Origin: Candidatus Thorarchaeota archaeon
GTDB lineage: Archaea > Asgardarchaeota > Thorarchaeia > Thorarchaeales > Thorarchaeaceae
NCBI GenBank assembly: GCA_011364985.1
Contig: RDOC01000001.1
Span: forward strand, 422,630-471,486
Direction: 5' to 3'
DNA length: 48,857 nt
Positions 20,655-27,304 of the stretch are shown here, one piece after another. Under the pieces are notes generated by a model. That model was given only the letters and a program-made list of their open reading frames with translations. It ran no database searches and was not told where the DNA came from. Numbering within the stretch: the first letter of the stretch is position 1; every line of letters starts with the position of its first letter. The translations under genes were made by a program, and so were the position numbers.

Positions 20655-21920
20655 ATGAAACCAGATCTTGTGCTCACAAATATTGGGCAATTAGCAACCA
20701 TTGGAGGCAGCAGCCAAGAACCGAGAACCGGCGATAGGATGAAAGATCTCGCAATTATAGAAAATGGTGCAGTAGCCATAAGAAATGGGATAATCATCGC
20801 AGTAGGAACAAGTGAAGAGATTGATTCGCAAATCACGGAAGAGCCGTTCTTTCCTCCGGTGGAATTCCCAGATATGCTTGCAATTCCCGGTTTTGTCGAT
20901 AGTCACACGCATCTGGCCTTCGGTGGGTCTAGAGAACATGATTTTGCAATGAAGCTTGAAGGCAAAACGTACCTTCAGATACTAGAGGCAGGAGGTGGCA
21001 TTCTTAATACACTGAAGGCAACACGACAGGCTTCACAAGAGGAGCTTACAGCGAACGCATTCTCTTATGCATCAAGTATGCTTTCCTCTGGAACAACAAC
21101 AATTGAAGCAAAGAGTGGCTATGGGCTGGATATTGAGAATGAACTGAAGATGTTGCGTGCCACAAATGCACTTAATACGATGCTGTCAACGGAGATTGTT
21201 TCAACCTTTTTGGGGGCTCATGCCATTCCTCCGGAGTTTGAGGGGAAGACCGATGACTATGTAGATCTTGTTGTCAATGAAATGATCCCTAGAGTATCAG
21301 AGCAGGGCTTAGCCGAGTTCTGCGATGTTTTTTGTGAGAAGGGAGTATTTGATGTTGAACAGTCCAGACGGATTCTACTGGCAGCAAAGAAAAAGGGAAT
21401 GAAAATCAAGATTCATGCTGATGAGATTGTTCAGTTGGGAGGCGCCGGGCTAGCTGCTGAAGTTGGTGCAATCTCAGCGGATCACCTCCTCATGGCCTCT
21501 GACAATGATTTGGAAGCAATGAGAAAAACCGGAACCATAGCAACACTGCTGCCATCTACGGCTTTTAGTCTAAATGCCGACTATGCCAACGCCAGAAAGA
21601 TGATAGGGATGGGACTTCCAGTGGCACTTGCAACGGACTTCAATCCAAACTGTGCCAATGAGTCCATGTTCTTCACAATTGCCTTGGCATGCTACAAAAT
21701 GAAGATACAGCCAAGAGAGGCCATTACCGCGGCAACGATAAACGCGGCCCATGCCTTGGGTCGAGGCGAGTCAGTAGGGAGCATTGAGCTAGGAAAGAAG
21801 GCTGACTTGCTGATTTTAGATTGCCCCAATCCAGAATATCTCACTTGGAGATTTGGTGTGAATCTAGTACATACCGTTATCTCAAATGGGGAGGTAGTTC
21901 ATACAAAGCTGGGTCCTTGA
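20655..21920 (+). CDS. hutI: Imidazolonepropionase
   Basis: PGFVDSHTH, EAKSGYGL, GAHAIP, CDVFCEKG, HADE, ATDFNP. Confidence 0.97.
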   Translation: MKPDLVLTNIGQLATIGGSSQEPRTGDRMKDLAIIENGAVAIRNGIIIAVGTSEEIDSQITEEPFFPPVEFPDMLAIPGFVDSHTHLAFGGSREHDFAMKLEGKTYLQILEAGGGILNTLKATRQASQEELTANAFSYASSMLSSGTTTIEAKSGYGLDIENELKMLRATNALNTMLSTEIVSTFLGAHAIPPEFEGKTDDYVDLVVNEMIPRVSEQGLAEFCDVFCEKGVFDVEQSRRILLAAKKKGMKIKIHADEIVQLGGAGLAAEVGAISADHLLMASDNDLEAMRKTGTIATLLPSTAFSLNADYANARKMIGMGLPVALATDFNPNCANESMFFTIALACYKMKIQPREAITAATINAAHALGRGESVGSIELGKKADLLILDCPNPEYLTWRFGVNLVHTVISNGEVVHTKLGP

Positions 21921-22588: not shown

Positions 22589-24121
22589 CTATTCTTCAAG
22601 AATAGAGCCTGTCACAGCTTCCACACATTTGATGATATGCCCAGTTCGAATCATGCTTTGAATGGAAGAGATATCATCATGAAGCGGTCGGTCATTCTGT
22701 ATCATCGGAACGACTTCTCGAATGCTGCTCATGGCGGCTGTGATTGGCTGAGAGGGGGCCAGGGGTGAAAGAAGGTCAATACCTTGTGATGCACATAGGT
22801 ATTCAATGGCAATAACATTCTCTGCATTTTGAAGAATTTGCATGGCCTTTCGAGCTGCAATAGTGCCCATACTGACGTGATCTTCCTGATCGGCACTTGT
22901 TGGAATGGAGTCGACACTTGCTGGATGAGCAAGTACCTTGTTTTCAGAAACTAGGGATGCTGCAGTATACTGAGCAATCATCAAACCGGACTCAAGCCCG
23001 CCTTCAGTTGTCAGGAAAGGAGGAAGACCACTCAGGTGAGCATTGACAAGTCGGTTAATTCTGCGCTCCGATATGTTCGCAATCTCGGAGATGACTATTC
23101 CCAAGAGGTCCATAGCAATCGCTATTGGCTGACCGTGAAAGTTGCCACCTGAGAGGATCTCCTTTTCATCGGCAAAGACCAGTGGATTGTCAGTTGCGGA
23201 GTTAATCTCGATTTCAAGGACAAATCTAGCATAGCGTATGGAGTCAAGTGAAGCGCCGAGAACTTGAGGAATACAGCGGAGAGAATAGGCGTCCTGCACT
23301 TTCCCACAGTTCTCATGAGACTTGTTAATCTCACTGTCGCGCAGGATGTCCAGCATTGTTCTAGCAATGTCAAGTTGGCCCTCATGCCGGCGGGTCATGT
23401 GAATCCTCTCATCAAATGCAGTTCTGGTTCCTCTCAAGGCTTCCAAGCTCATAGCTGAGGCAACAATTGCGTTCCGTACAAGTGTTAAGGCATCATGAAC
23501 AACAAGACAACCAACAGAACTCATAGGTTGAGTCCCGTTAATCAAAGCCACCCCCTCCTTGGCTTCAAGACTGATAGGGGTGATTTGTGCACTCTGCATA
23601 GCTTCGGCGCCACTGTAAATGGTCCCTTTGTATGATGCCCGCCCTTCTCCAATTAGAACTAAAGCCATATGCGCAAGAGGAGCTAAATCTCCACTTGACC
23701 CAACAGAGCCTTGTTGTGGCACAATGGGAACAACATCCTTGTTGAGCATCTCGATTAGAGCTTCAATTACTTCTAGGCGTACTCCAGAATATCCCTTAGC
23801 CAATGCATTAGCTCTGAGTAGCATCATACCACGAACAACTTCTTCACTGAAGGGCGGACCAACTCCTGCACTATGACTTCTTATCAGATTTACCTGCAGT
23901 CGGGCCAAATCATTTGGGCTGATTGATACGTTGGACAGGTCTCCAAAGCCAGTGTTCACTCCATAGACAATCTTACCTTCAGCTAATGTAGACTCAACCA
24001 CATCTCGACTGGCAAGGATTCCATCCAAGGCGGCCTCCGCGAGTTCTACTGATTTCTTATGTCGCGAAACCTGCACTACTTCATCAATCGTAAGATGTTC
24101 GCCGTCGATAACAACTGTCAT
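22589..24121 (-). CDS. hutH: Histidine ammonia-lyase
   Basis: YGVNTGFG, SVGSSGDLAPL (MIO tripeptide SSG), VQDAYSLRC, GGNFHG, QEDHVSMG. Confidence 0.97.
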   Translation of the reverse strand: MTVVIDGEHLTIDEVVQVSRHKKSVELAEAALDGILASRDVVESTLAEGKIVYGVNTGFGDLSNVSISPNDLARLQVNLIRSHSAGVGPPFSEEVVRGMMLLRANALAKGYSGVRLEVIEALIEMLNKDVVPIVPQQGSVGSSGDLAPLAHMALVLIGEGRASYKGTIYSGAEAMQSAQITPISLEAKEGVALINGTQPMSSVGCLVVHDALTLVRNAIVASAMSLEALRGTRTAFDERIHMTRRHEGQLDIARTMLDILRDSEINKSHENCGKVQDAYSLRCIPQVLGASLDSIRYARFVLEIEINSATDNPLVFADEKEILSGGNFHGQPIAIAMDLLGIVISEIANISERRINRLVNAHLSGLPPFLTTEGGLESGLMIAQYTAASLVSENKVLAHPASVDSIPTSADQEDHVSMGTIAARKAMQILQNAENVIAIEYLCASQGIDLLSPLAPSQPITAAMSSIREVVPMIQNDRPLHDDISSIQSMIRTGHIIKCVEAVTGSILEE

Positions 24122-25250: not shown

Positions 25251-27304
25251 TTATCCTATGATCTTCTTCCGAACCAGTTCCTCCAAATAATCGTCCTCTG
25301 GAATGTAAGGCAGGGTTATTTGGCCTCTTTTTCCCATTCTCTTGTTCCATTCAATCACAGCTTCCACGGCATGGTCATTTCGAGCCCAAGCACGTCTAGC
25401 CACGCCACTCATTACATCCCAGTCTAATGCAGATCTTATGATATTGTCAACCCGATCACTTCCATCGAGAACAAGCCCAAATCCGCCATTGATTGCTTTG
25501 CCTATCCCTACACCACCCCCATTTGATAGAACGCAGAGAGTCATTCCTCTTGCTGCATTTCCTGCCCAGCACTGATGAGACATGTCGCTGGAGATATTAC
25601 TTCCATCTAGTATGTTTGCAGTTTCTCTAAAGGGCGAATCTGTTCCACCTGTATCATGGTGGTCCCTTCCAAGCATTATTGGCCCTATCTTACCCTCGCG
25701 TACGCTTTTGTTGAACTTGAGTGCAATCTTAACACGACCCTCTACATCTGCATAAAGTATCCTTGCTTGTGAGCCGACGACCAAGGCGTTCTTCTCAGCG
25801 TCCCGAATCCAGACATAGTTGTCTCGGTCTTGCCCTCGCCTTGTGGGATCTATACAGGACATGGCGATACTGTCAGTCTCTATGAGATCCTTGTGCTCCC
25901 CGCTCAGACAGATCCATCTAAAAGGACCGTAGCCATAATCGAAACACACAGGGCCCATGATGTGTTCGACATACGATGGAAAAATGAATCCATCATCTGT
26001 GGTTTTACCATTCCTCGCAATACTCGTAGCTCCAGCATCAAAGACCGCCTTCATGAAGCTGTTGCCGTAGTCCCAGAAGTGTGTCCCTTGAGCAGTTACT
26101 TTCCGTATTAAATCAAATTGCAGACGAAGGGATTCATCGACCTTGTTCTTGAACTCTGCACGATCCCTTCTGAGTAGCTCCCTTCCCTGTTCAAAGCTCA
26201 ATCCTTGAGGTGTATATCCGCCATTGTATACATCATGGCATGAGGTCTGGTCGGAGGAGAGTTCGATAGGAATCTCATGTCTTGCTACATAATCCCAAGC
26301 ATCGACGATGTTGCCGTAATAGCCAATAGAAACAGTATCACCACTCTCGCGAAATTCCTTCACCCATTCGAAGATCTCATCGAGATCATCAGAAGAGCGA
26401 TTGAGCCATCCTTGTTTGCTTCGTGTTTCTATTCTGCTCTTGTCCACTTCTGCAATAATCCCAATGCCCCCTGCAATCTCAACTGCCTTTGCTTGGGCAC
26501 CACTCATCCCTCCAAGACCGGAACTAAGGAAGACCTTTCCACTCAGATCCTTGTCATCTGGAATACCGAGGTAGAGACGACCTGCATTCAGTAACGTCAG
26601 ATAGGTTCCGTGAACAATCCCCTGCGGGCCAATGTACATCCAACCACCTGCAGTCATCTTTGCGGGACTCAGCGTGGTGCTAGAGCCTGTCCGTAATTCG
26701 TGACGCCGAGGGAGGATGCCTTGCGAAACATCTCTGGAGTATCAAACATCCCGACCATTAGTCCATTTGTCGAGATTACTCGAGGGGCATTCCTATGAGA
26801 GGGAAATAACCCCAAAGGATGACCCGAATTGACGGCCAGAGTCTGCTCTTCATCCATTGTCTGCAGATACTTCATAATAAGCTGATACTGCATCCAATTC
26901 TGGCAGACTTGGCCTGATTCACCATATGTCACGAGTTCGTAGGGATAGAGTGCAACATCAAAATCCAAGTTATTGTCTATCATCAATTGAATTGCTCTTG
27001 CCTCAAGAATTCCCTTATATTCGTCAATGGATCTTGCTTTAATTCGCCCTTGAGACCTGAACCGGTATCCATAGATTCGACCCCTTGTTACTAGCTCATT
27101 CAGAAATTCTGGTGCAAGTCGTTCATGAAGGCTGTCTGGGACATAACGCAGGGCATTCTTTAGAGCGACTACGGTTTCTGATTGAGTCAGGTTGTAACCT
27201 CTATCTGGTGCTCTCCGTATTCCAGACTCGAACTCCGGATCAGGAGGAAGTTCAGATGAGAGTTTTATATTCATTACATCAGAAATACTAGTCAATAGCA
27301 ACAC
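25251..27304 (-). CDS. hutU: Urocanate hydratase (long UROC1-like type), split by a 29-nt putative intron; exons 27304-26689 and 26659-25251, 674 aa if spliced
   Basis: NNLDFDVALYPYELVTYG, SGHPLGLF, NYGQ|MTAGGWMYIGPQGIVHGT, GLGGMSGAQ, SDQTSCH, GRDHHD. Confidence 0.95.
26660..26688 (-). other. Putative bulge-helix-bulge mRNA intron (29 nt) in hutU
   Basis: AGGCTCTAGCACCACGCTGAGTCCCGCAA; bulges ACA and AAA flank helix ACGG/CCGC (one A-C mismatch); cuts AC^A and AA^A rejoin TAC GGA CAG ATG. Confidence 0.8.

Follow-up and report, generated by a model that had tools for sequence, protein, structure and literature searches.

A bulge-helix-bulge insert in the urocanase gene of a Thorarchaeia genome is a predicted mRNA intron

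The interrupted urocanase gene

The stretch of DNA analysed here (the window) comprises 48,857 nucleotides (nt) of contig RDOC01000001.1 of a Candidatus Thorarchaeota archaeon, and carries in interrupted form hutU, the gene for urocanase. The genome, designated G000 (Thorarchaeia, Asgard), is a 74%-complete assembly whose contigs are given below as C numbers. Coordinates for hutU are those of the window, and all of its features lie on the minus strand. The gene is called as two open reading frames (ORFs), 27304-26669 and 26657-25251, whose matches to the urocanase model TIGR01228 are consecutive. It is the single urocanase gene found in the genome, and a 29-nt insert at 26688-26660 breaks it. 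As the first-pass annotation had described, the insert lies inside the urocanase motif NYGQ|MTAG, adds a stop and shifts the frame; it splits the Gln codon of that motif. The motif NYGQMTAGGW is restored by just three sliding placements of the removed segment (26688-26660, 26687-26659 and 26686-26658). The rule for bulge-helix-bulge (BHB) structures, by which cleavage occurs after the second base of each bulge, leads to the first of these; the earlier claim that this rule removes 26688-26660 and restores the motif was borne out, with the addition that the placement is one of three.

The first-pass annotation had given a joined frame of 674 amino acids, a length that stems from the upstream GTG at 27304. 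Homologue alignments begin at the ATG at 27274, so that the joined product is 664 amino acids long. Exon 1 (26689-27274) then holds codons 1-195 and the first base of Gln196 and matches TIGR01228 positions 18-124, and exon 2 (25251-26659) holds the last two bases of Gln196 and Met197 to the stop, matching positions 123-537. Besides the insert, the 664 codons contain no stop or frameshift. The insert itself (26660-26688) brings an in-frame TGA at 26671-26669, with which unspliced RNA would yield a fragment of 201 amino acids. The junction lies between the residues equivalent to 131 and 132 of the Pseudomonas putida urocanase, Met197 corresponding to Met132 of structure 1UWK, in a segment which we take to line the active site. 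A literature search on the role of Gln131 gave nothing usable.

The sequence around the junction folds as the first-pass annotation had laid out for the helix, the bulges and the intron hairpin. The central helix is formed by the exon strand ACGG (26694-26691) and the intron strand CCGC (26665-26662), with three C-G pairs and an A.C mismatch. It is bounded on opposite strands by the 5' bulge ACA (26688-26690) and the 3' bulge AAA (26659-26661), each with a predicted cut after its second base. With a 4-bp helix flanked by a 3-nt bulge on either strand, the insert displays the hallmarks of a BHB, in a relaxed form with three of four pairs. Outer helices are present on both sides. On the intron side, a hairpin (26666-26687) with arms at 26687-26679 and 26673-26666 has eight pairs, one bulged T and a 5-nt loop. 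On the exon side, an extended exon-exon helix, with its 5' strand at 26695-26719 (codons 186-194) and its 3' strand at 26636-26658 (codons 196-204), is supported comparatively and is weak in the predicted fold of this allele. Promoter and terminator scans gave background levels.

A relaxed scan of G000 returned 259 BHB-like folds of 26-36 nt, and the motif alone is therefore weak evidence. Background-rate arithmetic (259 matches over 3.4 million positions and 11 lengths, with three placements), using criteria set with this case in view, puts the probability that BHB cut sites match the insert ends by chance at about 2e-5. What raises the hutU insert above chance is the coincidence of the cut sites with the insert ends, together with a structure kept with covariation in seven other genomes; the comparative evidence is decisive.

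As to the gene as a whole, its closest homologues are on Thorarchaeota records, and 25251-27274 encodes the long form of urocanase (about 665 amino acids), whose best solved relative is 6UEK (681 amino acids). In the urocanase tree, Promethearchaeota and one Cloacimonadota group lie near the Thorarchaeia copies, which suggests transfer. Two further genes of histidine catabolism in the window are intact, namely hutH for histidine ammonia-lyase (22589-24121, minus strand; TIGR01225, 708 bits) and hutI for imidazolonepropionase (20655-21920, plus strand; TIGR01224, 476 bits). The hutH product has Ser-Ser-Gly at the site of the triad that forms the methylidene-imidazolone (MIO) group, which is usually Ala-Ser-Gly.

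Inserts at the same site in other Thorarchaeia

We surveyed hutU in 87 genomes of the class. An insert at the same base was present in eight genomes from five genera (G000, G014, G017, G023, G032, G070, G071 and G104), and the junction was intact in 61. The seven other inserts are 30 nt each and in frame, and every one carries a stop at the place equivalent to the TGA of G000, so that TGA, TAA or TAG occurs there in 8/8 alleles. The first-pass annotation had named same-site inserts of variable sequence among Thorarchaeia as a check on its proposal; the seven found here keep the BHB with compensating changes. In an alignment of the eight alleles, the BHB and its flanking helices are paired in 96% of 151 cells. 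Seven pairs, one of them between exon and intron, have changed on both sides, and this is true of six of the nine intron-stem pairs. The covariation score was reached by none of 500 shuffles, and slid controls paired in 31-50%. In three genomes, the exon has the synonymous Tyr codon TAT in place of TAC and the intron strand has changed to suit, so that a C-G pair of the central helix becomes U-A. The A.C mismatch of this helix is shared by G023, and the other six alleles have all four pairs.

The 5' bulge ACA is invariant in all eight alleles. The middle base of the 3' bulge, by the rule the last base of the intron, varies freely (A, C or G), and the third base, the one in the middle of the rebuilt Gln codon, is A in every allele. 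In G017, G032 and G104 the unspliced codon is that for His (CAC), and the invariant Gln appears only when the insert is excised at the BHB cut or with the cut shifted by one base. Cuts after the second bulge base restore an uninterrupted gene in all eight alleles. Both exons are under purifying selection, with nonsynonymous divergence (dN) between G017 and G032 of 0.042 and 0.031 and synonymous divergence (dS) of 0.98 and 0.93. One urocanase gene was found in each of the five intron-bearing genomes checked.

Codon usage next to the junction also differs with the presence of the insert. Gly195 is GGA in 8/8 intron-bearing versus 6/45 intronless alleles, Val191 is GTC in 8/8 versus 9/45, Gly190 is GGC in 7/8 versus 6/45, and Leu189 is CTC in 7/8 versus 3/45, so that the 5' strand of the extended exon-exon helix is fixed towards pairing in intron-bearing alleles. 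Part of this fixation could stem from common descent of a transferred patch. We also think it probable, as one part of a wider reading set out below, that intron-bearing alleles pull flanking amino acids (Ala187 to Ser or Thr, Met189 to Leu) towards better exon pairing.

Between the fixed bases of exon 1 and invariant positions of exon 2, 12-16 of 19 pairs can form, compared with 3-12 of 19 in intronless alleles, a count that is partly circular as the list of 19 pairs was drawn after inspecting the alleles. This circularity is one of several points that weigh against an intron at this site. A free duplex-energy test of the exon helix gave p = 0.009 only, and the eight alleles are kin, representing about five to six lineages, so that the statistics overstate their independence. 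In silico, the helices of the G000 allele have pair probabilities of 0.1-0.7 depending on the window folded, those of the ATT/GAT exon pairs are close to zero, and the advantage of the core fold over shuffles reaches only p of about 0.04. The G000 allele is moreover the weakest of the eight, with its A.C mismatch, one base fewer and 12 of 19 exon pairs. At a second insertion site in hutU, described below, the inserts of G033 and G109 have just two Watson-Crick pairs in the central helix. Finally, an in-frame ATG lies close to the very start of exon 2, so that re-initiation of translation is conceivable.

The distribution of the insert was examined on a tree of 98 urocanase proteins with the junction masked. 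Its presence needs seven changes, at least six of them forced by well-supported branches, which is no fewer than shuffled labels often give (97/500). The clear homology of the inserts implies that they were precisely lost many times, spread laterally, or both. The hutU genes of G014, which has the insert, and G001, which lacks it, are 96% identical downstream of the junction and 72-76% identical upstream, and exon 1 of G014 is the part that departs from its clade. This mosaic would point to a likely gain of the insert by recombination with a breakpoint at the intron, the alternative being an assembly chimera. An unrelated 32-nt insert interrupts hutU at codon 116 (TYG|ESGQ) in G011, G033 and G109. 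Both sites follow a Tyr-Gly pair that supplies a helix strand, a hint of target preference. None of 80 metagenome loci had an insert at the Gln196 site, and three extra pattern matches among 400 Asgard genomes proved not to be hutU.

Putative splicing machinery, other interrupted genes and alternative explanations

G000 encodes two paralogues of the tRNA splicing endonuclease EndA, with genes at C11:364581 and C15:156070, and the ligase RtcB. The EndA of 188 amino acids is closest to the catalytic subunit from Aeropyrum pernix (E 1.7e-46). It retains the Tyr/His/Lys triad, and its alignment with the A. pernix enzyme extends over the lysine-bearing loop, which is known to confer broad specificity (PMC3241643). 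The second EndA (213 amino acids) is without the catalytic His and reads as a structural subunit. An enzyme of broad specificity would fit a helix with one mismatch. Introns are present in many tRNA genes of G000, and several of the ARAGORN calls seem to have been parsed wrongly, which is what genes with more than one intron would lead one to expect. The same program called a tRNA-Sec at C11:352835-352925 on the minus strand.

With high confidence, we interpret the hutU insert as a putative mRNA intron spliced by EndA and RtcB. The pre-mRNA would fold into the exon helix, a 3-nt bulge, the 4-bp helix, the other 3-nt bulge and the intron hairpin. In each bulge the two-subunit EndA would cleave behind the second base, and RtcB would then ligate the exons, rebuilding the Gln196 codon and giving the 664-residue urocanase; translation of unspliced RNA would terminate at the intron stop. 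We infer the cleavage by EndA, the ligation by RtcB, the translation of the spliced RNA and the neutrality of the intron. The conserved stop may shield the cell from making a full-length product whose conserved motif is enlarged by ten residues; it may also be conserved by chance, because few lineages are involved and the stem arm is purine-rich. Of what the first-pass annotation had proposed, a BHB intron in a metabolic mRNA spliced by the tRNA machinery is strongly supported comparatively, by the covariation, the exon constraint and the EndA loop, while no spliced RNA was seen. Its further suggestion of a switch on histidine catabolism was not supported. The insert occurs in eight of 87 genomes against 61 intact junctions and is scattered on the tree, and similar inserts are present in EF-1alpha, porA and ahcY. 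Because of this scattered presence and of the like inserts in housekeeping genes, a histidine-responsive switch on top of routine splicing is unlikely. The intron would most likely be a tolerated, non-regulatory passenger, constitutively spliced and gained, lost and moved between lineages.

The inserts in EF-1alpha and porA came from an examination of the other split genes of G000 for BHB motifs, which the first-pass annotation had recommended. In a genome scan for BHB folds that, once removed, would bring two coding frames together, hutU ranked near the top. Such motif-only scans are noisy: when inspected, most of the highest-ranked candidates turned out to be ordinary genes or borders between genes. 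A 30-nt insert with an in-frame stop interrupts the gene for EF-1alpha on the plus strand at C15:202262-202291 (L122:1763-1792), and its removal restores DFIKNMITG. Same-site inserts of 30 nt, likewise with a stop and with paired changes, are present in G024, G030 and G066, and a second full-length EF-1alpha was not found in these three genomes or in G000. The strongest indirect argument for removal of these inserts from the mRNA is an essential gene, present in single copy, that becomes readable only through the BHB cut. In porA, removal of 32 nt on the plus strand at C11:138556-138587 (L123:1556-1587) restores YPITPQT (YPITPQ|T), and G109 has a 31-nt insert at the same site. In ahcY, a 32-nt insert on the minus strand (C1:160-129) has a central helix of four pairs and a mismatched first intron pair, and its removal restores GHPSEVM (GHPS|EVM). 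This gene was missed by the scan on account of the contig end and the mismatched pair, and the four interrupted genes of G000 are thus a lower bound. The mRNAs of all four are in all likelihood spliced. A further BHB-like fold of 31 nt on C12 (L124:1924-1954, minus strand) would join frames of 236 and 534 codons, with no known motif at the junction. Two candidates were set aside, namely a match of G032 to the EF-1alpha pattern, which was due to chance, and a second EF-1alpha break in G030 (C45:20576-20675), where an N run with a 55-nt overlap marks a scaffold gap.

A search for RNA runs containing the EF-1alpha locus, chosen as the likeliest to be covered, listed none. Three metatranscriptomes of the same study were aligned to that locus at 85% likeness. 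Only fragments were recovered, and the junction is not spanned by any contig from this organism. Two short pieces of about 98% likeness end at least 100 bases from it, and the contigs that end at the junction belong to other organisms. The result is no evidence either way on splicing.

The main rival is a natural split gene, in which ribosomes stop in the insert and re-initiate at Met197, an active urocanase is built from the two parts and the hairpin aids the coupling. The stop kept at the same place in 8/8 alleles, with all three stop codons in use, would agree with this, as would the ATG after the junction and the Met within two to three codons after the EF-1alpha and ahcY junctions. However, the two exact 3-nt bulges and the covarying exon-intron helix would be left unexplained, three alleles would have His in place of the invariant Gln, and no Shine-Dalgarno-like run precedes the ATG. 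There is also no ATG at the junction in porA or at the second hutU site of G011, and EF-1alpha would be broken within its GTPase domain with the loss of two conserved residues. We regard a split gene as very unlikely. Still less likely is that the intron family is genuine and this 29-nt allele has decayed, being spliced poorly or not at all in a hutU on its way to a pseudogene. The helix mismatch, the 1-nt deletion, the lowest exon pairing of the eight, the marginal predicted fold and an end branch of G000 (0.33) among the longer ones can be read in that direction, but the 664 codons are otherwise open, hutH and hutI are intact, and the intronless G028 and G030 have branches equally long (0.34 and 0.33). 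The A.C mismatch is moreover shared by G023, and BHBs of unconventional form are also found in most cbf5 introns (PMC2738675).

Translational recoding, by selenocysteine read-through or ribosomal bypass, would give a full-length protein without cutting of the RNA. The stop in G000 is a UGA within a hairpin, in a genome with a tRNA-Sec, but the insert shifts the frame here, so that read-through cannot work, and four alleles have TAA or TAG. As for bypass, the take-off and landing codons are unmatched (CAG/AAG here, CAC/GAA in G017) and the stop lies six codons in, whereas programmed bypass of the T4 gene 60 type is marked by matched codons and a stop right after take-off. We consider recoding exceedingly improbable. 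An assembly artefact, or a chance insertion in a dead gene, could be entertained for a 74%-complete assembly, but this explanation is effectively refuted by the purifying selection on both exons and by the homologous inserts, diverged in sequence, that seven independently assembled genomes of five genera have at this very base. An intron removed from the mRNA at the BHB cut sites is the interpretation that we retain.

Relation to known archaeal introns

Group I, group II and homing-endonuclease-bearing archaeal introns also interrupt conserved motifs and move between lineages. In contrast to these, the hutU inserts, at 29-30 nt, are too short for a ribozyme core (well over 100 nt) or an ORF, and no endonuclease gene was recognised beside hutU. 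When G000 and the class were searched with a covariance model of the hutU intron, no further member emerged, the weak matches lying in ordinary ORFs or in hairpins of non-BHB type; with no second member found in G000, no tRNA donor was identified. Archaeal tRNA introns resemble the hutU insert in their BHB anatomy and repeated gains. In Asgard archaea they are many and repeatedly gained, and most genomes have two EndA paralogues; the preprint reporting this deals with tRNA genes only and never mentions mRNA (bioRxiv 10.64898/2026.10.13.758758).

The closest precedent in a coding sequence is the BHB intron of the cbf5 pre-mRNA in Sulfolobales and Desulfurococcales (Watanabe 2002; Yoshinari 2006; Yokobori 2009, PMC2738675). 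In both cases, a short intron lies between the first and second bases of a conserved codon, the BHB is relaxed and is cut between bulge bases two and three, the host has a hetero-oligomeric EndA, and the intron is absent from particular lineages. The hutU case differs in its Asgard host, in the metabolic nature of the gene, in the presence of such inserts in at least four coding genes of one genome and in the two hutU sites across the class. The hutU inserts are also scattered, whereas cbf5 reflects one ancestral gain with few losses, and cbf5 splicing was shown by cDNA, whereas the hutU intron is known here from sequence. In Haloferax, HVO_1309 has a BHB intron in its 5' untranslated region (Schwarz 2020, PMC7714728). 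The hutU mRNA would likewise be a substrate of the tRNA splicing endonuclease; the HVO_1309 intron lies outside the coding sequence and its translation does not strictly depend on splicing, whereas the hutU frame requires removal. These two, cbf5 and HVO_1309, are the only archaeal mRNAs that reviews, one of them from 2023 (PMC10485636), give as spliced by the tRNA endonuclease (see also PMC7714728), and the cbf5 paper of 2009 describes introns in other genes as predicted and unconfirmed (PMC2738675). In the literature searched, which excluded subscription papers, we found no reports of Asgard mRNA introns.

The hutU insert appears to be an archaeal BHB intron, of a known but very small kind, and every feature that could be tested agreed with this. 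A polymorphic pattern of mRNA introns in several genes was not found in the literature searched, where cbf5 is the only coding-gene precedent. In the wider reading, which we hold to be probable as a whole, Thorarchaeia routinely splice coding mRNAs with the tRNA machinery, BHB introns of about 30 nt being gained, lost and passed between lineages, and such introns sit in metabolic and essential genes, namely hutU (at two sites), EF-1alpha, porA and ahcY. The near-identical sister alleles with and without the insert offer a system in which the gain, loss and transfer of introns can be tested, and a bench test would be simple, requiring a 70-nt substrate and two small EndA subunits. For annotation, split Asgard genes may be intact, which bears on metabolic reconstructions and marker-gene trees. 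With four interrupted coding genes in one Asgard genome, EF-1alpha among them, interrupted mRNAs would, if this reading is right, be normal in an Asgard lineage and hidden as pseudogenes in annotations. Relatives of the lineage that gave rise to the eukaryote host would then already be able to deal with intron-bearing ordinary mRNAs, and would do so independently of any spliceosome-related pathway.
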